Positions 26,339 through 36,388 of a DNA stretch of 64,000 nt are shown here, in pieces (within the stretch, counting starts at the first letter, position 1; each line of letters starts with the position of its first letter). Made by a program: the position numbers and the translations under genes. The notes beneath the pieces were generated by a model, which saw nothing but the letters and a program-made list of their open reading frames with translations, was not told where the DNA came from and ran no database searches. The stretch lies in the IMG/VR virus record IMGVR_UViG_3300037201_000018, positions 30,384-94,383 of that record; one strand, written 5' to 3'. The stretch is from a virus.

Positions 26339-26516
26339 GTGGAAGAAAGACAATCTAGCCGCTGTAGTTGACGACCTCGTGAAAGGAAAGATAGATGAGC
26401 AAAAGGCGAGAGAAAGATTGGCGGTAATCATTGACGAATACGTCGTTGAAGCACTACAAGACAGGGACCACAGCGAAGAGTCTGCATTACAGAGATCGTT
26501 TAGGAGAGAACTATGA
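26328..26516 (+). CDS. hypothetical protein
   Basis: Packed ORF. Confidence 0.45.
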   Translation: MMSKWKKDNLAAVVDDLVKGKIDEQKARERLAVIIDEYVVEALQDRDHSEESALQRSFRREL

Positions 26517-28120
26517 AGGCAATACTTGTTGCCGTTAATTTCCTTGATATCCTGTCAATCACGCTTCCTTACAATCGACATCACTTCGACGAGGTCTGGA
26601 TCGTCACGAACCAACTGGAAGTCAGCAGTCCCAAGATGATGCAGTTAGCTGCGGACAACCGAGCGACGCTGTTCGGGACCGACGCCTTCTACGAGGATCA
26701 TGCCGTTTTCAATAAATTCAAGGCGCTGGAGCAGGGACTCGACGCGATGGGAAGAGACGGTTGGTTATGTGTAGCACCCTGGGTCCCCGTAGAAGCTCCA
26801 TTCGTTAAAGGCGCATCGAGAAAATGGTACGTCGGAAATCTGATCACGATCAGGACCGTCAGTGGCCGGTCAGTGTCCGTGACACCTGATCACAACTTGT
26901 TTACCTCTCGCGGTTGGGTTCCAGCGAAATCGATTCGCAAAGGAGACAATCTCTTTCAGGTCAGCAGTCCCGATTGTCTTGGGGCACCAGACGTACACCA
27001 GCGTCCACCCGAGATTGGTCAAATAGTCGATGCGGCGTTTGAGAGATCCGCGATGAAGAAGGTGGGGTCCGTGAGGATTCGTATGGATCTCAAACCCCAA
27101 TTTCTTGACGACGATCGCGACGTCGATGTTATACCGTCTGACAGCGAATTGTCTGTCGACCTTGAACCGCTTCGACAGTGTGTCAGCGACGTCGCCTTCG
27201 TAGCGTCCGATGCAGACCTGGTTTGCGTGTCTAGTCTTAGCGATCTTCGACGAGACCTTCGCGGGACGCGCTACGCCGGTACGCACAGCCCTCATCGCAG
27301 CGACCCGCTTAGCGACGGCCGCCGGAGAATCGTGAGTCGCCCTAACTTTACCGGCTTGGCTATGACTCCGTTGTATTATTCCAGACAGTCTGAGTTGCCT
27401 ACTGATAACCTTGTCACTTGTATCAAAAACAGCGGCGATAGTTCTCAAGCTATCGCCGGCCTCATAACGCCTGACGACGTAGTCTCTATCGATGCCATCC
27501 CGTGGTCTGGTCATGTCTATGATCTCTCTACGGTTCAAGGTTGGTTCCTAGCAGATGGACTTATTATACACAATTGCATCATGGACGCCGACGTCCTCTG
27601 GCCTAAAGACATTGGCGGAGTGATGATCGAGAACAGTTCCAACAGGAACTTGATCCTATCAGATTGTGGTTGCTCATTTACGTTTGGCTATCTTTACACT
27701 CCCAAGCGGCGGATGTTCACCAATCTCACGAAGCCAATTCCGCCGGAGTCCGAGTGGAAGGACTACCCCTACCATCACTACTTGGCTGAGTGGAGTGGCT
27801 ACACCCAGATATTCCACGGCAGCGACCCAGTCCTTCCGAATCCGCCTTGGCATGACACTTCGTGGTTACATGCTGGCGGCGGCGACAGCGGATTTCAGAG
27901 TCTGTGGCCACCAGACAAAAAGCTCCGTACACCCTTTGAATGCTTGCACTTGGGCGACTCGCTTAACTGGACAGGGAGAGTGACGAAATACGTCGACGGG
28001 TCTACTCCGCCGGGGGCCGAAGCAAACCGCCAGAAGCTGGTGAGGTTCCTGCACGAGCGAAGTCTGAAGGGCAGCAGGTCAGATCGCTACGACCACGAGA
28101 AGATACAAAGGACTGAGTGA
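26513..28120 (+). CDS. GT-A glycosyltransferase containing an intein
   Basis: Removing 26768-27574 restores GWL-CIMDADVLWP (DxD motif). FNK..A, GYTQIFH and GGGD..F are GT-like motifs. Confidence 0.8.
   Translation: MKAILVAVNFLDILSITLPYNRHHFDEVWIVTNQLEVSSPKMMQLAADNRATLFGTDAFYEDHAVFNKFKALEQGLDAMGRDGWLCVAPWVPVEAPFVKGASRKWYVGNLITIRTVSGRSVSVTPDHNLFTSRGWVPAKSIRKGDNLFQVSSPDCLGAPDVHQRPPEIGQIVDAAFERSAMKKVGSVRIRMDLKPQFLDDDRDVDVIPSDSELSVDLEPLRQCVSDVAFVASDADLVCVSSLSDLRRDLRGTRYAGTHSPHRSDPLSDGRRRIVSRPNFTGLAMTPLYYSRQSELPTDNLVTCIKNSGDSSQAIAGLITPDDVVSIDAIPWSGHVYDLSTVQGWFLADGLIIHNCIMDADVLWPKDIGGVMIENSSNRNLILSDCGCSFTFGYLYTPKRRMFTNLTKPIPPESEWKDYPYHHYLAEWSGYTQIFHGSDPVLPNPPWHDTSWLHAGGGDSGFQSLWPPDKKLRTPFECLHLGDSLNWTGRVTKYVDGSTPPGAEANRQKLVRFLHERSLKGSRSDRYDHEKIQRTE
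26768..27574 (+). mobile_element. intein (269 aa, Cys1...His-Asn, +1 Cys) with no sense-strand endonuclease motif
   Basis: Block A CVAPWVPV; block B SVTPDHNLFTSRGW; block F GHVYDLSTVQGWFLADG; block G IIHN/C. Confidence 0.9.
26870..27514 (-). CDS. antisense intein-embedded endonuclease (HTH + DUF559/Vsr-like PD-(D/E)XK domain)
   Basis: HTH RRYEAGDSLRTIAAVFDTSDKVISRQL. Nuclease E...L...RQFAVRRYNIDVA...KLGFEI...RRIDYLTNLGWTLVYVW. Minus-strand TATAAT at 27563-27568. Confidence 0.75.
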   Translation of the reverse strand: MTRPRDGIDRDYVVRRYEAGDSLRTIAAVFDTSDKVISRQLRLSGIIQRSHSQAGKVRATHDSPAAVAKRVAAMRAVRTGVARPAKVSSKIAKTRHANQVCIGRYEGDVADTLSKRFKVDRQFAVRRYNIDVAIVVKKLGFEIHTNPHGPHLLHRGSLKRRIDYLTNLGWTLVYVWCPKTIGTADLKEIVSFANRFRWNPTARGKQVVIRCHGH

Positions 28121-28326: not shown

Positions 28327-28505
28327 ACTAAACAGAACGACCGTTGCAGACTGGGATCGCACGCCGTAGGAGTCGAGGTGTGTAATCTGGAAGGCGACAA
28401 GCGTCTAGAGACCGTCAAGGATGAAGTCCGGGCGGTTACGTCTGACCGTCGTTCCGTTTTAACTAAAAGAGCCGCCGGCACCACGGCCAGAGAGCGGGCC
28501 GCAAA

Positions 28506-28691: not shown

Positions 28692-28716
28692 GAGTCACCT
28701 ATGTCACCGACGACAA

Positions 28717-29040
28717 TCAGATGATGAAGCTCAGCGTAGCGCATGGAGCGTGAGTGTGGATCGTTCTCTTCTCTCCGTGACGAGAGCTGTTATAGACCTC
28801 GATCTGAAATTCACGACCATCAAATGCAGCCCAGTCGCGCTCTACATCGGTCTTGACCTGGGCTGCGATGTCGGCGGCAGAGGCGCCCACCTCATGCTCC
28901 ATATAGTCGAATTTCAACGAGCCTATCGTTGTCCACGTCGGATACAGTGGCGAGTGACGAAAAAATACTCCCACCGCCGTGCAATGTCGCCCAGACTCGG
29001 TCCTCACGGCGTCGCCAAGTTTTACAGTTGTAGTCATCAT
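28717..29040 (-). CDS. hypothetical protein
   Basis: ATG with AAGGG RBS, downstream of the minus-strand promoter. Confidence 0.5.
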   Translation of the reverse strand: MMTTTVKLGDAVRTESGRHCTAVGVFFRHSPLYPTWTTIGSLKFDYMEHEVGASAADIAAQVKTDVERDWAAFDGREFQIEVYNSSRHGEKRTIHTHAPCATLSFII

Positions 29041-29146
29041 CGTTTCACCCTTTTCTCTTGCGGTTTCTTGTGGCACACGCGGAGAAATAACGGACGGCCT
29101 CAATCAGCGTCTGCGGGATTGTGTCGGTCATTGCGATCTCCTCTCA

Positions 29147-29425
29147 TTAGTCACGGTATCGAGAGATGCGCGTCGCCTCGACGGCGTCACGGACTTCGTC
29201 TGTCCACGCCTCGATGACTGTCTCCTCGGCCTCTCTGCACGCACGCACGGACAGCTCGTCAGATTGCTCAGCGCACTCGGCCAGCGTCGTCTCCAGGCAT
29301 TGCATCGCGGCGAGCAAATCGGCGTCATCGGTGAGGCCCGATTCGATCGCCTTGCGAATTGTGTTGATCGTGGTGTCTTCGGCGCTCTCGTAATTGCAGT
29401 TCGCGATGATTGGGTAGGTCGTCAT
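29147..29425 (-). CDS. hypothetical acidic protein
   Basis: GAGGA RBS before ATG 29425; directly downstream of a sigma70 promoter. Confidence 0.55.
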   Translation of the reverse strand: MTTYPIIANCNYESAEDTTINTIRKAIESGLTDDADLLAAMQCLETTLAECAEQSDELSVRACREAEETVIEAWTDEVRDAVEATRISRYRD

Positions 29426-29489
29426 GTTTTCCTCTTGGCTTGTGGCAGCCTTCGTTTTTCCCTTTCCCGTTGTTTCCTTCACTGGCCTA

Positions 29490-29518
29490 ATTGTATAGCC
29501 ATTTTCGTTCGGCGACAA
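29490..29518 (-). promoter_or_regulatory. sigma70-type promoter
   Basis: TTGTCG-N17-TACAAT on the minus strand. Confidence 0.6.
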
Positions 29519-29585
29519 GCCAGGAAACGAAGAAAAACGACAGAATTCCAAAATAATTGGCTAGCCGTTACGTAGATTACCCAAA

Positions 29586-29963
29586 CTACCGAGCCACCGC
29601 CGGAGATTTGCGAAGGCTCTCAACTGCTGCCGTGGCGAGCGCTTCGTAGCTCGGATACTTTACGCACCACGACTGATAATCGGCACGCGGTTCCGTGTCC
29701 GGCAGATCCACGTCGGCCGTCACGGTGATAAACAGCTTCATCATGCGGCCAAACACGTAATCGCCGTAGGGATGTCCGGGGCGATCAAAGCTCATTGGAT
29801 AATCACCCTGCCCTCGAACGTTGTTCCAGACCATCTCTTCGGTCACGCTTCTGCGCTCCTGAAGCACTCCCATGCCCGATGCACGGCCGCAGGCTTCGTA
29901 AGCGAGGAAGAAAATCCGTTTGGCCAATTGCTCACCACTAAAACCTTCCACTTTGAACTTCAT
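29586..29963 (-). CDS. hypothetical phage protein (DYVFGRMMKL motif)
   Basis: GGAG RBS; coherent ORF. Confidence 0.55.
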   Translation of the reverse strand: MKFKVEGFSGEQLAKRIFFLAYEACGRASGMGVLQERRSVTEEMVWNNVRGQGDYPMSFDRPGHPYGDYVFGRMMKLFITVTADVDLPDTEPRADYQSWCVKYPSYEALATAAVESLRKSPAVAR

Positions 29964-29998
29964 AACTTTCTCCAGTTTTGAAAAGTCACCACTGAACG

Positions 29999-30274
29999 CT
30001 ACCCTACCTTAGTGCGCTTACGATCTAGGTCGGCTCGGTCAAGAGCCGCTTCCCAAGCAACTGGATTCTTGTAGCTCTGATCGTCGCGTAGAGATAATTC
30101 CTCATCTTCGTATTCATCCTCGTCGTCGTCTTGGTAGTCATCAGGGTCGTCTGGACCTTCGTCCTCCTCGTCAACCAAGCCCAACTCATCGACAACGTGA
30201 CCCGTCGTGTCCTCGTGCTTGTTCGCTTCAAGGCCGTCGTTTGTCGTAAAGTTGCAGTGTCCGCAGGTGTACAT
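29999..30274 (-). CDS. acidic protein with N-terminal C2H2-like Zn motif
   Basis: CGHC...KHEDTTGH followed by an Asp/Glu tract. Confidence 0.5.
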   Translation of the reverse strand: MYTCGHCNFTTNDGLEANKHEDTTGHVVDELGLVDEEDEGPDDPDDYQDDDEDEYEDEELSLRDDQSYKNPVAWEAALDRADLDRKRTKVG

Positions 30275-30501
30275 CAGCCGTCTCCCATCATAACACATTC
30301 CAGTGGAATCTGATACAGCTTGTCCTTGTCGAACGTATCTAACCTGACGATCGCGTCGGTCGAGATCGTGTCCAGCTCGCTTTTACCTAATATGGTTCTG
30401 GTCGTAACGCCGGCCGCCGCTGGGACGAATGCGATTAGCGTCGCTTCGATCGGACTCCGCCAGTCCTTGTTCAACCTGACGACGCATTTGAGATTGAGCA
30501 T
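30274..30501 (-). CDS. hypothetical protein
   Basis: Coupled start/stop with neighbours. Confidence 0.5.
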   Translation of the reverse strand: MLNLKCVVRLNKDWRSPIEATLIAFVPAAAGVTTRTILGKSELDTISTDAIVRLDTFDKDKLYQIPLECVMMGDG

Positions 30502-30731
30502 CAGTTCTTTCCTTTACTGGCTGATCTGTAGACGTGAAAAGAGTCAGACGTCTGCCCCTCCTTTCTCGGTCTCACGGAGACTACTTCGTTGTTCGTGAAC
30601 GCCGTTACCCAGCAGTAGTGCTTCCCGTGCTTGTGCTCGCTGATCCTCCCCTGCTTGACGACGTTGGAGACTCTCTGGATCGCAGTCTCCTCGTCGATCT
30701 CCGGTCCGAACGTGATGATGATCCTCTTCAT
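30501..30731 (-). CDS. hypothetical protein
   Basis: AGGAGG RBS before ATG 30731. Confidence 0.55.
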   Translation of the reverse strand: MKRIIITFGPEIDEETAIQRVSNVVKQGRISEHKHGKHYCWVTAFTNNEVVSVRPRKEGQTSDSFHVYRSASKGKN

Positions 30732-30814
30732 GGTTCCTCCTTGGTTAGAAGATGCTGGGCTTGACCTACCTAGCATGAGAAGCCGTCCGAGATGAGTTTG
30801 GCGGCTCCAAGGTT

Positions 30815-31039
30815 TCAGACTCGGTAATTCCCACACGACTGACTGAGGTAAACTACGTAGCCATCTTGGTCTTGGAATTCCGTTCGACAGGTAATGTCGT
30901 CAGATTCGTGTTGGGGAGACAAAACCGAGTAGGCGGTAATCGTCTTGTCGCCGTTCGTCCAGTTGAGACGATCCCAATCATATCGCCACTCCCCAGGGAA
31001 CATCTTACGGAGTTGGTCAATTACTCGCTTACGAGGCAT
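30815..31039 (-). CDS. hypothetical protein
   Basis: Packed ORF. Confidence 0.45.
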   Translation of the reverse strand: MPRKRVIDQLRKMFPGEWRYDWDRLNWTNGDKTITAYSVLSPQHESDDITCRTEFQDQDGYVVYLSQSCGNYRV

Positions 31040-31042
31040 AGA

Positions 31043-31321
31043 CTAAGCTTCCTGACTTGGTTCCTGAATCATGTCGTGACCGAACGTCCTAAAGAACTCG
31101 TCCCTGATCTGCTTCTCGATGTAGCGGAGATCATCTAGAGATAAGCTCAAATCTGCCGAGTCTCTACCTGATCTTATAAGTTGTAACATCAGACCTAGAT
31201 CTTGAGCTAAGTTAGCAACAACCAGAGGGAATTTGGCGACTGCCCCTAGTCGGTTCAGCTCGCTCATCGCGAGGATCTCTTGGGTCTTCGCCCCTTCCAG
31301 CTTCTTGCGATCAACTGACAT
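31043..31321 (-). CDS. hypothetical protein
   Basis: Packed ORF downstream of the helicase. Confidence 0.5.
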   Translation of the reverse strand: MSVDRKKLEGAKTQEILAMSELNRLGAVAKFPLVVANLAQDLGLMLQLIRSGRDSADLSLSLDDLRYIEKQIRDEFFRTFGHDMIQEPSQEA

Positions 31322-33059
31322 AGATAAGCTCCTCGATCGCCCTCGTTATGGCGATGTAGCGACAATTCCATTCTTGCTCGACCTGCCACTTGCTCTTGGC
31401 CATCGGATGTGGAACGGTCGCCCCTTCCGGTTCAAGTAAGAAAACTCTCTTGTTTTCGAGGCCCTTCGCTTTGTGAATCGACGACAGTCTAATCCCGGTT
31501 CCGTTCTTGTCGTCGGTGAACACGCTCTCGATCTTCGCGACGACTCCCGCAACCGTCGTCTGGTCTTCACAGAATGCAATTAAGCAGTCGTGACGATCTT
31601 GCAGGGCGATCAGTCGGGTGTCGGACGGGTTGCGCTTCGAGTTCTCCTTCGTCTGTTCCTTGTGAAGCCAGTCCTCCAATTTGACGAGCAGTTGCGAGAC
31701 GTCGTCACACTTCATCTTGTTGATCGTGCTGATGAGCCCCTGTCCGACGTCTCTGCCTTGAATTACGGCTTTTCGTCCAGCCTTGAGGAACTTGAAACAC
31801 TGCGAGACGAGAGGTGCGTTACAGCGACAGAGGATCATGTCTCCGTCTTGGACGTAACCGCGGTAGTTACTTTGAGCAGCCCCGTCCTTCGCTTCCTTCT
31901 CGTCATCCTTGTACTTGAGTCCGTGACGAATCGCCCCGTCGCAGTTTGACTCGTGCGCCTCGAAGTCAGGCACGATCCTCTGAGCTTCCTTGACGATCGC
32001 CTTCCCGCACCTCCGAGTGACGGTGAGCGGGAGAGTGACGCAACCTCGAACTGAAACTGGCGGGTCTATTTTTTGAGCAGCGTAGATGGCTTGAAGCACA
32101 GATCGACTACGCGGTACACCGAAGCACTCACTGAGTTCTTCCGCCATCCGCTTCATGCTCTCGGAGTCGGCTCCTGCGAAACCGTAGATCGCCTGCTTCG
32201 GGTCTCCACATAGGATGAGACGCCTTCCCGACATCTTCGCGAGGGCTTGTTGAACTTTTGAAAGGTCCTGGCACTCATCACAAAGCAATACGTCGTACTT
32301 CTGGACGTTCAAGCCGAGAGCGACCGGAATCCACACCATGTCGTTGAAGTCCACGCAGTTATCGCGAGCGACGTCCTTGCACCGTTCGAGGACTCGCGGA
32401 ACCAGCGAAAAGACCTCTTCCTGCGAGCTGTTCAGGTCGACGTCGTAGTACGAAGCCAAATCCCGAAGAGTCTCATTCCAGTCTGGATCTCCGGGTTTCA
32501 TCGAGTTACCACAAGGATCGAGGTGAGAGAGGTTCATCTTGCAGAGACCGACCAGCTCCTCCGTCGCCTTGACGAGGACCGGCTTGGTACGTCGGAGTTC
32601 GCGGATGTCGCGTTCGAGCAGCTCGGAGACGACGTCCTGCACGCGGTAGCTGTTTACCTTGACGTTGCCGAACGCCCGCTTGACTGAGGAGAAGCCCAGG
32701 CTGTGCATCGTCATCGCGTCACAGCCTGCGGGGACTCGCCGCTTCAACTCCTCAGCTATGCTCTTGTTGAATGCCACGAAACCAACAGTCTGTGCTTTCC
32801 CCTTCGACAGGCAGACGGCGTCGAAGATCGCCTGCTGCTGCGGGGAGGGGACGATGTCCGAGGGGAGACCCTTCAGCAACTTGAGGGACTCAATGAGAGT
32901 TGTCGTCTTGCCAGTCCCCGCTCTCGCCTCAATGATCAGGTGGGGGGTGGTGTCCGCGCCGGTATCTCGCTTCGTCTTTAGCCGGTCCGCGAGAGTTTTC
33001 CGCCCGTCTTCCCGTACCACCTGATCCTGTGCTTTTTCCTCAACGCGATCAGTAACCAT
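31311..33059 (-). CDS. UvrD/Rep-like superfamily 1 helicase
   Basis: ARAGTGKTTT, AFNK, DECQD, GDPKQAIYGF.GA, SIHKAKGLE and YIAITRA motifs. Confidence 0.92.
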   Translation of the reverse strand: MVTDRVEEKAQDQVVREDGRKTLADRLKTKRDTGADTTPHLIIEARAGTGKTTTLIESLKLLKGLPSDIVPSPQQQAIFDAVCLSKGKAQTVGFVAFNKSIAEELKRRVPAGCDAMTMHSLGFSSVKRAFGNVKVNSYRVQDVVSELLERDIRELRRTKPVLVKATEELVGLCKMNLSHLDPCGNSMKPGDPDWNETLRDLASYYDVDLNSSQEEVFSLVPRVLERCKDVARDNCVDFNDMVWIPVALGLNVQKYDVLLCDECQDLSKVQQALAKMSGRRLILCGDPKQAIYGFAGADSESMKRMAEELSECFGVPRSRSVLQAIYAAQKIDPPVSVRGCVTLPLTVTRRCGKAIVKEAQRIVPDFEAHESNCDGAIRHGLKYKDDEKEAKDGAAQSNYRGYVQDGDMILCRCNAPLVSQCFKFLKAGRKAVIQGRDVGQGLISTINKMKCDDVSQLLVKLEDWLHKEQTKENSKRNPSDTRLIALQDRHDCLIAFCEDQTTVAGVVAKIESVFTDDKNGTGIRLSSIHKAKGLENKRVFLLEPEGATVPHPMAKSKWQVEQEWNCRYIAITRAIEELIYVS

Positions 33060-33192
33060 CGCTCTTCTCCCGCTTCTGTTTGGCTCGGGTCATGTCGTCG
33101 CTGATCTGCTTCCGCATCGTTCGCGTCTTGTCGACTGCCTTCTTCGCGTTCGTCTGCGATCTCGTCGGCTTCTTAGTCTTCTTCGGGTGCAT
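33049..33192 (-). CDS. small basic protein (47 aa, not in ORF track)
   Basis: AGGAG RBS; MHPKKTKKPTRSQ... Confidence 0.45.
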   Translation of the reverse strand: MHPKKTKKPTRSQTNAKKAVDKTRTMRKQISDDMTRAKQKREKSDGY

Positions 33193-33413
33193 CGCGTCGC
33201 TCCTGTTCCTGAGTCAACTAAGTAATAGGACCAAATTCACTTGGCGTTGCAAGCCGTAAGTTGCCTTATGATATTCTTTATCCTCTTCTCGTGAAGTTTC
33301 CAGTGACGCTTTTGCTTATGCAGGTCGTCAATGCTCTCGGGAAAGGATTGAACTTTCTGGTTCTATTAGCCTGGATTTTTGGGGATAATTACAAGCCATT
33401 ACAGACCAACGAC

Positions 33414-34907
33414 TTACGGCTCTTCCGAGCGGAGGTTGGCTGCGGGAACCTCCCAGATTTTGCCGTTGGCCGCCTTCACTTTGGCGACCTCAGCCCCAAC
33501 TTTGCCGTAGACCTCAACTAACACACCTTGCCAGTTATCCCCATCCTCGTCGAGGACCCAAACGACGTCCTTCGGTTGGGGGTCGAACTTCGGGGCCTTC
33601 CCCTTACCGTTTTTCTTCGGCGGTTTACTGACTTCTTGGTCTTCGTCAGCTCTCATCTCCTGATCTGAATCGGCATCTGGATCGTCGCCCACGTCTTCAG
33701 TCGAGTCGGGTTCTTCATGTTCTTGCGGCTTGCCGATGTCGATCCCGCCGACCGTGGGGCACTCGACGAGCACCTTCTTGCCGTCCTTCTCGCCGAACTC
33801 GGGCTCGATTGCGTCGTAGGTGATCCGCTTGCCGTGAGCGACACACAGCCACGATTTAACAATGAGCAGGATCATGACCTCTCGGGTCACCCTGCCGTCG
33901 GACGAGTCGTGACCTAGCTTGCTGATCGCCGCGTCCAGCGCAGCCATCTCCTTCCCGCCCTTCGCGAGCTTGACCCAGAAGTCGCAAGCCTCGTCCCACA
34001 GGCTGAAGTCGAGGTGGCTCTCGCTCTTGGTCTCCTCGGTTCGGTACTTCGTCGGCTCGGTCTTGCCCTGGCCCATGAGGTAGAGCATCCCGGCAGCGTA
34101 ACCCGCGGGAAGGTACTTGCCGATCTTGCCGTCGCCGTCCTCCTCGAACATGTGCTTCGTTGCATCGACAAGGTGATGATGGTGATGAACGAAGTCGAAC
34201 AGCTCGGCGTGACTCGGTCGAGGGGCGAAGGCGTTGATCTTCATCCCCGTCCGGTGCCAGACGACCTTGACTGCGCACTCAAGTATCCTGGAGAGTCTTC
34301 CCCTGTCTCCCTTGTTGGAACCCTCGAAGACCCCCGACCGGAAGACCGCGTCGGCGAACGACCTTCGCCTGCCGGTGTTGATCGTATTCACTGTTAGGTC
34401 ACTCTCATCAATTCCTAAAACAACGATACATTCGAGAGTCGGCTGAGTCTCCCACTTGTACCACTTCTCTTTGTCTCGTTCCCAAGCCTGAACCGCTAGA
34501 ATGAGAGCAACTCCTCGGTGTTGGAAGTCGATCGTTTCTCCGGTCCTACCAATAATGATCGTTTCTCCGTTCAACTTCCAGTTCTTGTTCAGGATCTCGT
34601 ACTGCAACGTCCTTGCGTTACCAGGATCGTACATCCGGTTCTTCGTGTTGTTGTGTAACCGTACCTTGTGCCCATACTCGTCCGTAAGTACGTAATCAGG
34701 CCCGAACTTGACCTTGTCGGTCTCCTCTTCCCAGCCAAGCAACTTCTTGGCCTTGGACGCGGTCAGCGCCTTCTCGCCAACACAAGTCCAGACCTGGATC
34801 GCTGGATAGAGAACCTCTCGCTCGGCGGACTCGACCTTCCCATTGGCTTCGACGGGAGAGGCTTTGGGAGTCGGCTTCTTCGTGGGGGCTTTCGGCATCG
34901 CAAACAT
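33414..34907 (-). CDS. ParB/DGQHR-like nuclease-fold protein with acidic linker and C-terminal SH3-like domain
   Basis: N.KNR...W.LNGETII......IDFQHR..A motif; NTG.RRS..D. Confidence 0.6.
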   Translation of the reverse strand: MFAMPKAPTKKPTPKASPVEANGKVESAEREVLYPAIQVWTCVGEKALTASKAKKLLGWEEETDKVKFGPDYVLTDEYGHKVRLHNNTKNRMYDPGNARTLQYEILNKNWKLNGETIIIGRTGETIDFQHRGVALILAVQAWERDKEKWYKWETQPTLECIVVLGIDESDLTVNTINTGRRRSFADAVFRSGVFEGSNKGDRGRLSRILECAVKVVWHRTGMKINAFAPRPSHAELFDFVHHHHHLVDATKHMFEEDGDGKIGKYLPAGYAAGMLYLMGQGKTEPTKYRTEETKSESHLDFSLWDEACDFWVKLAKGGKEMAALDAAISKLGHDSSDGRVTREVMILLIVKSWLCVAHGKRITYDAIEPEFGEKDGKKVLVECPTVGGIDIGKPQEHEEPDSTEDVGDDPDADSDQEMRADEDQEVSKPPKKNGKGKAPKFDPQPKDVVWVLDEDGDNWQGVLVEVYGKVGAEVAKVKAANGKIWEVPAANLRSEEP

Positions 34908-34938
34908 CCTTGAAGTTAGGGAAATGGAATAACTAAAA

Positions 34939-35178
34939 TCAAATCTTCTTTTTCGGTCTACCGGGGCCTGAAAATTTTGGAAACTTCTTGATTGTCCTCG
35001 TTACTTTAAGTCCTAAAGTTGCCGCTATCTTGTCAAGACACGCACTTCGCAATCCACGCTCACCGGCCTTAAAATGGCAAAGAGTTGCCTGCGAAACTCC
35101 CGAGAGTTTTCCAAGGCGATACATAGAAAGTCCGCTCTCTTTGATTTCATGCCTAACCTGCGAGCTAAGTAACTCCAT
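34939..35178 (-). CDS. XRE-family HTH transcriptional regulator
   Basis: SGLSMYRLGKLSGVSQATLCHF..GERGL....LDKIA..LGL. Confidence 0.8.
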   Translation of the reverse strand: MELLSSQVRHEIKESGLSMYRLGKLSGVSQATLCHFKAGERGLRSACLDKIAATLGLKVTRTIKKFPKFSGPGRPKKKI

Positions 35179-35207
35179 ACGATACTCCTCAAAATTTTAG
35201 TTATGAA

Positions 35208-35402
35208 CTAACGAGCTTCTTCAACTACTTCTTTGACTTCGAACGAACAGTCACCGTGACACGGAAGTCCGTCGGTAATCTGGTGTCGCCCAAGAAATAA
35301 CTCCATTTGTCGTTTGACAATTTCAGGAGTCAGATACGAGCGATCTCCAATTTGTACGTCAGACTGAAGAACAACGGTGATCACGAACCGCTGCGGATTC
35401 AT
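35208..35402 (-). CDS. hypothetical protein
   Basis: AAGGA RBS; packed. Confidence 0.4.
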   Translation of the reverse strand: MNPQRFVITVVLQSDVQIGDRSYLTPEIVKRQMELFLGRHQITDGLPCHGDCSFEVKEVVEEAR

Positions 35403-35444
35403 CGGAGATTCCTTCAAAACAGATTGTTGAAAAGTCGGACAGAG

Positions 35445-35630
35445 TCAAATGAGTCGCTCGCCACCCTCGAACGGTTCGGGCTTGGGAGGAGGGGGAACGA
35501 CGTTGACGAGGGGCTGGCGTTTACGACGGGGGAGGGGACGAGAGACGTACTCTCGCTCTCGCAGCTCTCGGGGGATGGGTTGCCAGTTGACTTGGCGGAA
35601 GACGTCGGGAGTCGCCACAACACGTACCAT
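35445..35630 (-). CDS. hypothetical protein
   Basis: AAGGA RBS; first gene of the leftward unit. Confidence 0.4.
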   Translation of the reverse strand: MVRVVATPDVFRQVNWQPIPRELREREYVSRPLPRRKRQPLVNVVPPPPKPEPFEGGERLI

Positions 35631-35800
35631 GACTGATTCCTTGCTCTGGTGGGTGTCGGTTCGCGGCCAGCCGTCCTTCGGCCGACCGTCTAGGCGTGAA
35701 ATATAATAGCTGGTCTCCGAAAAGTAAAGCCGGTAAAGCGAGATTTACTTTTTCGGCTAAAGAGAATATAACTGTAAACGGTTTTGATAGAGGACTCAAA

Positions 35801-36388
35801 ATGCCCGTTCCACCGTTCCCAACCGACAAGAAGAAGCTGGCCGCTCTCGGTGTCAGACAGATCATGAGGTTCTGTAGGATCAACGAGATGCCGTCTCCGG
35901 CCGTGAAGATCATTCCTCGGGAGGATTGGCACGTCAGCACCTGTGCCTACTACCGGAAGGAGACGATCTCCATCTGTCTGGAGGAGTGCCAGTGGCCCTG
36001 CGGTGAAGCGATGTCTCGTAACTGGACGTGGCCCGGCAACACGGTCGATCGGGAACCCTACGGAGTCATCTGCCACGAGCTGGGTCACCACGTCGACTGG
36101 CTGACTGGAAAGGAGAGACACGCTTATTCGAGCGAGTTCAGCGAGGAGCTGATGAAGGAGTCGAGGGAGAAGCCTTTGACGGGATACTGCCCCAACCCGG
36201 CTGAGTGGTTCGCCGAGATGTTCCGGCTGTTCGTCACGAACCACTATTTATTGAAGGCAGTTAGGCCCAAGACCTGGAAGTTGTTCAGATCGAGATGGAA
36301 GCCGGTGAGCGGAGAGGACTGGGAGGCGGAGATGGGAGGTAACGTACCTTCGAGGATCGTTAAAGCGGCACGTAACAAGATATGCTGA
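35801..36388 (+). CDS. zincin-like metallopeptidase
   Basis: HELGHH plus downstream EWFAE.F motif. Confidence 0.7.
   Translation: MPVPPFPTDKKKLAALGVRQIMRFCRINEMPSPAVKIIPREDWHVSTCAYYRKETISICLEECQWPCGEAMSRNWTWPGNTVDREPYGVICHELGHHVDWLTGKERHAYSSEFSEELMKESREKPLTGYCPNPAEWFAEMFRLFVTNHYLLKAVRPKTWKLFRSRWKPVSGEDWEAEMGGNVPSRIVKAARNKIC

Follow-up and report, generated by a model that had tools for sequence, protein, structure and literature searches.

A phage intein with a predicted homing endonuclease gene on the opposite strand

Introduction

Full inteins that carry a VSR-like endonuclease gene in antisense orientation have been described in actinobacteriophages (Gosselin, Arsenault & Gogarten, bioRxiv 10.1101/2025.01.02.630785; "the 2025 preprint" below), and antisense LAGLIDADG endonucleases in inteins were known before that (Gorbalenya 1998; Gogarten et al. 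2002, both cited in the 2025 preprint). A different arrangement was found by Dassa et al. 2009 (PMC2677866) in fractured genes, where a free-standing Vsr-like endonuclease gene lies between the halves of a split intein. Here we analyze an element of this kind in a 64,000-nucleotide stretch of viral DNA (the window), which is part of IMG/VR virus record IMGVR_UViG_3300037201_000018 (positions 30,384 to 94,383 of 94,383 bp; rated complete by CheckV). An intein interrupts a likely glycosyltransferase gene of this phage and contains, on its opposite strand, a predicted homing endonuclease gene (Table 1).

An earlier note on this DNA had taken the architecture to be undescribed. This can no longer be maintained, as the 2025 preprint already has antisense VSR-like endonucleases in full inteins. 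The window element resembles those inteins in being contiguous, in having the antisense open reading frame (ORF) in the endonuclease region, in the lack of a recognizable fold in the sense-strand interior and in residing in a phage. It differs from them in its extein (a GT-A-like glycosyltransferase, as opposed to DNA polymerase, minor capsid protein, terminase and thymidylate synthase), in its host (a metagenomic 94-kb phage, as opposed to PhagesDB actinophages) and in the overlap of its endonuclease ORF with splicing blocks B and F. The window intein is a new extein case for this recently described class. The preprint calls such inteins rare, whereas our searches return about 1000 representative clusters, with every sampled locus nested in register. 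Its main text makes no mention of a promoter or ribosome-binding site, both of which are seen in the family examined here; a start codon formed by the complement of a His codon, a GGAGG derived from a biased Leu codon and a sigma-70 promoter within the codons of blocks F and G (30 of 80 relatives) all go beyond that text.

With the elements of Dassa et al. 2009 the window locus shares a Vsr-related endonuclease with an N-terminal DNA-binding part, its placement at the intein endonuclease site, the phage gene context and the presence of separate expression signals. Their intein, however, is made of two ORFs; here a single 535-aa ORF runs through the intein, which excludes a fractured gene or split intein, and the endonuclease is antisense and the DNA fully dual-coding. 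We found no mention of an opposite-strand endonuclease in their paper. In the antisense LAGLIDADG cases the endonuclease does lie opposite the intein strand as it does here, but the nuclease family is another one.

The feature is real and mechanistically coherent. Very probably it is a contiguous intein whose homing endonuclease is a separate antisense gene at the canonical insertion site between splicing blocks B and F, and a member of the antisense VSR-like class reported in 2025. Under this explanation, the product of plus-strand mRNA would be a precursor, and splicing would turn it into a 266-aa enzyme. The endonuclease would come from a minus-strand transcript that starts at a TATAAT hexamer within block G or reads through from the convergent gene block to the right. 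During co-infection the endonuclease would cut or nick intein-less alleles near the W-L|C-I-M-D junction (the bar marks the insertion point), and repair would then copy intein and endonuclease together. This copy probably came to the glycosyltransferase gene through ectopic homing, its source being the MuF-like capsid-protein site W-[LIVM]|[CS]-T-x-D that most of its nearest relatives have in common.

The locus offers a natural example of DNA (about 640 bp) with a protein reading on either strand and a different constraint on each: the sequence of the endonuclease on one, freedom from stop codons plus splicing blocks at both ends on the other. It speaks for the idea that free-standing endonuclease genes are captured by inteins. 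The new extein also indicates that these elements are not confined to genes for capsid proteins or DNA metabolism.

Results

A class-1 intein at a conserved site

Judged by its sequence, the insertion qualifies as a textbook class-1 intein and occupies a conserved site. The Pfam model Intein_splicing (PF14890) matches it with 41.4-43.5 bits (cut-off 35.8), and the positions in the earlier note, among them those of the first Cys and the H-N/C junction, all agree with the sequence. Eleven intein-less homologs of 246-274 aa, which align end to end with the N-extein, lack exactly residues 86-354 of the host protein (269 aa). The gap runs from just after G-W-[LIT] to just before an invariant Cys, C355; D358 and D360 are likewise invariant in this alignment (x-x-D-x-D after the Cys). 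A 269-aa intein immediately ahead of a DxD motif, as proposed earlier, is thus what the homologs delineate. In the AlphaFold2 (AF2) model of the intein, the Hint parts (residues about 1-97 and 230-269) have pLDDT (predicted local distance difference test) values of 90-98, against 30-57 for the interior (98-222). The interior of the sense strand also has no Pfam match, in line with its previous description as filler. The intein is probably splicing-competent.

Two other interpretations of the insertion were rejected. An RNA-level intron is ruled out by the continuous frame and the full set of protein-splicing residues. A "head protein" function, suggested by a match of the sense intein to phrog_15127 over residues 16-149, is explained by the presence of related inteins in MuF-like head proteins.

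Neither extein matches Pfam. Comparison with the ESM Atlas placed the extein family near viral GT2-type glycosyltransferases (feature score 0.99 with viral glycosyltransferase clusters; template-modeling (TM) score 0.61-0.73 with GT2 clusters), and the family profile weakly matched the glycosyltransferase SunS (E 0.09) with the DxD motifs aligned. The interrupted gene is therefore likely to encode a GT-A-like glycosyltransferase. The C-extein has at least 138 homologs at E <= 1e-3 in a search range of 99-317 aa, the 120 listed being 161-293 aa long. Proteins of this range are too short to hold a 269-aa intein. When longer proteins that include the C-extein were sought among 5.8 billion proteins with a region-restricted search, the only intein-bearing allele found was that of the window.

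The antisense gene encodes a predicted Vsr/DUF559-type nuclease

The codons of the antisense ORF and those of the sense frame are in register (27512-26768 = 744 = 3x248). The ATG and the stop codon of the ORF are the complements of the His codon of block F and of the Ser35 codon, respectively, the latter lying four codons ahead of Thr39 in block B. The overlap with splicing blocks that the earlier note had pointed out is real: it comprises the last nine codons plus the stop on the block B side, and the start codon plus the ribosome-binding region on the block F side.

Exhaustive HMMER searching yielded 986 representative homologs of the antisense protein at E <= 1e-3, of which 226 reach E <= 1e-10. 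Most have a length of 215-300 aa, and the best one is 51% identical. A word-indexed homolog search with the same protein gave no match, nor did single-protein scans of viral contigs with either the window endonuclease or the family member P0001. The aligned homologs have an N-terminal helix-turn-helix (HTH), a middle part that is basic and helical, and a core in which N129, D131 and E142 are invariant. All three residues are found in the window protein, which has every invariant or nearly invariant residue of the family. Among 38 family members, 25 match MTES_1575 (PF18741) at E <= 0.01 (best 1.2e-10) and seven match DUF559; curated HTH models are matched as well. A single-sequence search of the PDB returned chance-level matches only, while the family profile matched the DUF559 structure 3hrl with E 3.9e-6.

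Modeled by AF2 with the family alignment, the endonuclease reached a mean pLDDT of 93.5. Its fold and the acidic residues on the core strands are those of the Vsr/DUF559/MTES_1575 group, with a target TM of about 0.7 for 3r3p and 3hrl and of 0.46 for Vsr (1cw0) in Foldseek; the usable evidence came from a second look with VIA-align and from the profile search. Folding both translations thus gave a confident nuclease on the antisense strand and a low-confidence interior on the sense strand. As to the domains that the earlier note had read from the sequence, the HTH and the DUF559/Vsr nuclease are borne out by the family Pfam matches, the 3hrl profile match and the model; the "NUMOD-like" label of the linker found no support, this segment being helical in the model with no family or fold match. 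The family has a conserved C-terminal motif, G-Q-Y-R-V-I-R-G-x-G (Q-V-V-I-R-C-H-G in the window), which corresponds to block B in reverse complement and forms the last beta-strand of the nuclease in the model.

I-Bth0305I, the protein in 3R3P, sits in a group I intron and belongs to a family with the signature E-D-x-H-D. The window family keeps N-x-D ... E-x-H. Vsr (1CW0) is a repair enzyme with a zinc site.

Some relatives (L011, L017, L015, L027, L034, L076 and many homologs) are extended at the N-terminus by about 55-190 aa, in what resembles a second HTH repeat, and the inteins that hold them are longer to match (314-369 aa).

Two frames under different constraints

Among windows of 214 codons taken from the long ORFs of this phage, the in-register antisense frame is open in only 6 of 1213. 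With the nuclease protein and the codon usage of the window taken as given, the probability that the sense frame stays open is 0.022; with the sense protein taken as given, the probability that the nuclease frame stays open is 0.001. The double open frame is not due to chance.

Two scans of IMG/VR provided 410 and 183 confirmed loci, the second by nuclease-core motifs only, and 80 loci were kept from each. The in-register opposite frame has no stops across the nuclease match in 87 of 87 and 79 of 79 loci (166/166, in loci that share ancestry and do not count as independent events) and continues into a long host ORF. The check proposed earlier, whether both frames stay free of stops in homologs, comes out positive in every locus examined. 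In the other two frames we counted 3-29 stops, save for one group of four near-identical loci with none in one frame. Nine of ten host ORFs tested match Intein_splicing, within Phage_Mu_F, Phage_min_cap2, VG15 or unassigned proteins. Of 77 related inteins, 74 have Cys as residue 1, 72 have Asn as the terminal residue and 71 are followed by a +1 Cys.

Since the frames are in register, each aligned codon can be scored in both. In 16 pairs of relatives the ratio of nonsynonymous to synonymous substitution rates (dN/dS) was 0.23-0.69 in the endonuclease frame and 0.58-1.32 in the sense frame, the antisense value being the lower one in all 16. Consistent with this, substitutions at endonuclease codon positions 3, 1 and 2 numbered 1526, 1115 and 723, respectively, and in 2898 of 2926 pairs the endonuclease frame gave the higher amino-acid identity. 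For the N-terminal splicing part, which lies upstream of the endonuclease stop codon and is coding in the sense frame only, the pooled pN/pS (the corresponding ratio of proportions) in that frame was 0.16. Synonymous sites are near saturation in most pairs (dS 0.6-1.5). A control with the exteins was uninformative because the exteins of different phages were too diverged or non-homologous. In the relatives, then, the antisense frame in the interior and the sense frame in the splicing domain are each under purifying selection; for the interior, the question of which frame is constrained comes out in favor of the antisense protein. The sense interior, predicted to be unstructured, is only kept free of stops.

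These results bear on the idea that a conserved domain in the sense frame casts the antisense ORF as a non-coding shadow, with the real endonuclease or some other function residing in the sense interior. In-register antisense frames of coding DNA can stay open, the sense intein does match phrog_15127, and mirror-image motifs such as D-F-H-G-D-G and V-D-V-V are conserved in the sense frame as well (alignment A4). The latter, however, are explained as complements of Y-N-I-D and A-V-E-I. The lower antisense dN/dS in every pair, the curated nuclease and HTH models that recognize the family, the known nuclease fold of the antisense reading against an interior devoid of Pfam match and confident structure, and the conserved signals upstream of the antisense ORF (start codon, ribosome-binding site and promoter; see below) make a shadow extremely improbable.

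One pair of relatives, L002 and L005, from the MuF-like genes of Gordonia phages Fosterous and Angelicage, shows a pS of 0.86 in the splicing part of the intein and 0.10 in the flanking exteins. The contrast indicates that the inteins differ in age from their host genes and suggests replacement or re-invasion.

Expression signals superimposed on splicing motifs

In the family, the endonuclease start codon coincides with the complement of the block F His codon (the one before V-Y-[DN]-L) in 62 of 75 loci, as ATG in 50 and GTG in 12. For the Leu of block F, 58 of 69 loci use CTC, as opposed to a share of 27.5% in exteins. Together with the next codon, this biased CTC produces GGAGG 8 nt before the start. 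The endonuclease stop codon lies at or beyond block B. Just upstream of GGAGG, and within 70 nt of the start, 30 of 80 non-redundant relatives carry TTGACA-17/18-TATAAT with 11-12 of 12 matches (L157, L156, L155, L107, L106, L105, L038, L062, L058, L065, L059 and 19 more), while control stretches inside the ORF score 8 at most. The near-saturation of synonymous sites makes the conservation of CTC, ATG and the promoter hexamers meaningful. A separate promoter is well supported by these matches in part of the family.

The -35 box corresponds to the complement of sense codons for L-S-S-N or V-V-K-N at the C-terminus of the intein. The promoter is found in 27 of 44 loci with Ser or Lys as the penultimate residue and in 1 of 28 with the canonical His. 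Placement of the -35 box in the codons of the C-terminal splice junction would explain why the penultimate His is replaced by Ser or Lys, and loss of this His is the predicted cost of the embedded promoter to the intein. The family data lend themselves to testable predictions on the way in which catalytic splicing motifs can also carry a promoter, a ribosome-binding site and a start codon.

In the window, ATTATA in block G does give a minus-strand TATAAT, as noticed previously, and clade mate L090 has TACAAT at the same position. A sigma-70 scan of this region found no -35/-10 pair (best combined score 9 of 12). The claim of a separate promoter thus fares better in the relatives than in the window, where the -10 hexamer and the weaker ribosome-binding site make for a weak case. 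The ATG and the CTC are both present; the adjacent codons leave GAGAG, not GGAGG.

A terminator-like hairpin is found at 27433-27458 (minus strand; nine pairs, six of them G-C, followed by a T-run), about 56-80 nt after the endonuclease start. It could attenuate endonuclease expression or be a chance occurrence (three such sites against 1.4 expected).

Is the window copy active?

Several observations weigh against the favored explanation of the window locus. Its TATAAT has no -35 box, unlike the consensus promoter of relatives; its ribosome-binding site is merely GAGAG; and the hairpin just mentioned lies inside the ORF on the endonuclease strand. The window protein taken alone gives weak MTES_1575, DUF559 and HTH matches below the Pfam cut-offs (PF18741, 20.9 bits, cut-off 38.2; PF04480, 14.2, cut-off 20.6), and the Foldseek E-values are weak (0.04-0.9). 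Selection, moreover, was measured in the family, whose nearest member is 51% identical, and the window copy might be recently inactivated.

Some of these points would suit a real intein with a recently silenced endonuclease, inherited vertically and with its sense frame kept open by the need for the glycosyltransferase. The missing -35 box, a ribosome-binding site weaker than that of most relatives and the internal hairpin all fit such a relic; close relatives for testing current selection were not found; and the 2025 preprint sees some VSR-like cases as vertically inherited. On the other hand, all 214 codons of the ORF are unbroken, against 6.3 stops expected if the sense protein alone were constrained, the family's invariant and nearly invariant residues are all retained, as is the start ATG, and the AF2 model is highly confident. 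That the intein is the only one found in its extein family speaks for an active element having invaded fairly recently. On balance we regard a silenced relic as unlikely.

Insertion sites and origin of the window copy

A tblastn search of GenBank phages with the antisense protein hit 25 records. In each of them the match faces an annotated capsid-morphogenesis gene on the other strand, and these genes include minor-capsid (MuF-like) genes of Gordonia and Mycobacterium phages. The antisense gene is annotated in none of the GenBank records inspected (OP172873, NC_055775, NC_031239, NC_055762, OP434458, OP172877, MK511015 and JF314845).

In a FastTree phylogeny of 129 endonucleases, the window protein belongs to a 12-member clade (support 0.984). 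Nine of the other 11 members are at a W-[LIVM]|[CS]-T-x-D site, for which the label "MuF-like" rests on visible motifs and record annotation, the host ORF of L001 (the sole clade member run against Pfam) having no Phage_Mu_F match. The window site, W-L|C-I-M-D, is identical to that of L100 at 15 of 18 bases. Endonuclease clades track insertion sites. The simplest reading is that the window copy arose by ectopic homing from a MuF-like capsid-protein site through target resemblance.

The phage has a MuF-like domain of its own, outside the window (G000:C1:9516-9833; locus L169), within a 1475-aa open frame. This gene is intein-free at both sites used by related inteins, with H-P-Q-C-R-C intact. 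A second copy of the endonuclease was sought in this genome and not found.

An expressed antisense nuclease might serve mainly for something other than homing, such as phage-phage exclusion (cutting the glycosyltransferase or MuF genes of competitors) or regulation through DNA binding. Free-standing phage endonucleases mediate marker exclusion in T-even phages, the fold alone does not set specificity, and the intein-free state of the phage's own MuF-like gene would be in keeping with such a role. Yet each of the 166 relatives lies within an intein, at the position canonical for an endonuclease, the pattern expected if nuclease and intein spread as one unit, and the correspondence between clades and sites points the same way. 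Exclusion and homing are also mutually compatible. We hold a main role other than homing to be quite improbable.

Returning to the homing intein, we somewhat favor a broader view in which it belongs to a large, old and always dual-coding lineage, with the whole expression cassette of the endonuclease antisense to blocks F and G, in one subclade including the consensus sigma-70 promoter, and in which the window copy illustrates exit from capsid genes by target resemblance (W-L|C-x-x-D).

Features and genome context

Table 1. Positions of the features of the intein locus in the window. C1, block B, the block F His codon, the terminal H-N and the +1 Cys were read directly from the sequence.
Feature	Position	Strand	Details
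Host ORF	26513..28120	+	535 aa; single ORF runs through the intein
N-extein, likely GT-A-like phage protein	26513..26767	+	85 aa; C-terminus G-W-L
Class-1 intein	26768..27574	+	269 aa; C1, block B, block F, block G ending H-N
C1 codon TGT	26768-26770	+	
Block B, T39-x-x-H42	26882-26893	+	
Block F His codon CAT	27512-27514	+	block F = G-H-V-Y-D-L, residues 248-253
Terminal H268-N269	27569-27574	+	
+1 Cys	27575-27577	+	
C-extein	27575..28120	+	181 aa plus stop; N-terminus C-I-M-D-A-D (+1 Cys, DxD)
Antisense ORF	26870..27538	-	222 aa
Predicted homing-endonuclease gene	26870..27514	-	214 aa plus TGA, from ATG at 27514
Predicted HTH DNA-binding domain	27365..27514	-	endonuclease residues about 1-50
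Predicted Vsr/DUF559-type (PD-(D/E)XK-like) nuclease domain	26873..27217	-	endonuclease residues about 100-214
Shine-Dalgarno-like GAGAG, weak	27524..27528	-	9 nt before ATG; GAG = complement of block F Leu253 codon CTC
TATAAT hexamer, candidate -10 box	27563..27568	-	complement of ATTATA, block G Ile-Ile codons; ends 48 nt before ATG

The host ORF lies in a late operon, as the second-last gene in a rightward block of glycosyl- and methyltransferase genes, and its upstream neighbors match the Pfam families Glycos_transf_2 and Methyltransf_23. Back-to-back terminator-like hairpins on both strands are found at 28431-28490, between this block and a convergent leftward block (about 28700-36000). 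Their position bears on whether antisense read-through from the leftward block gets to the intein.

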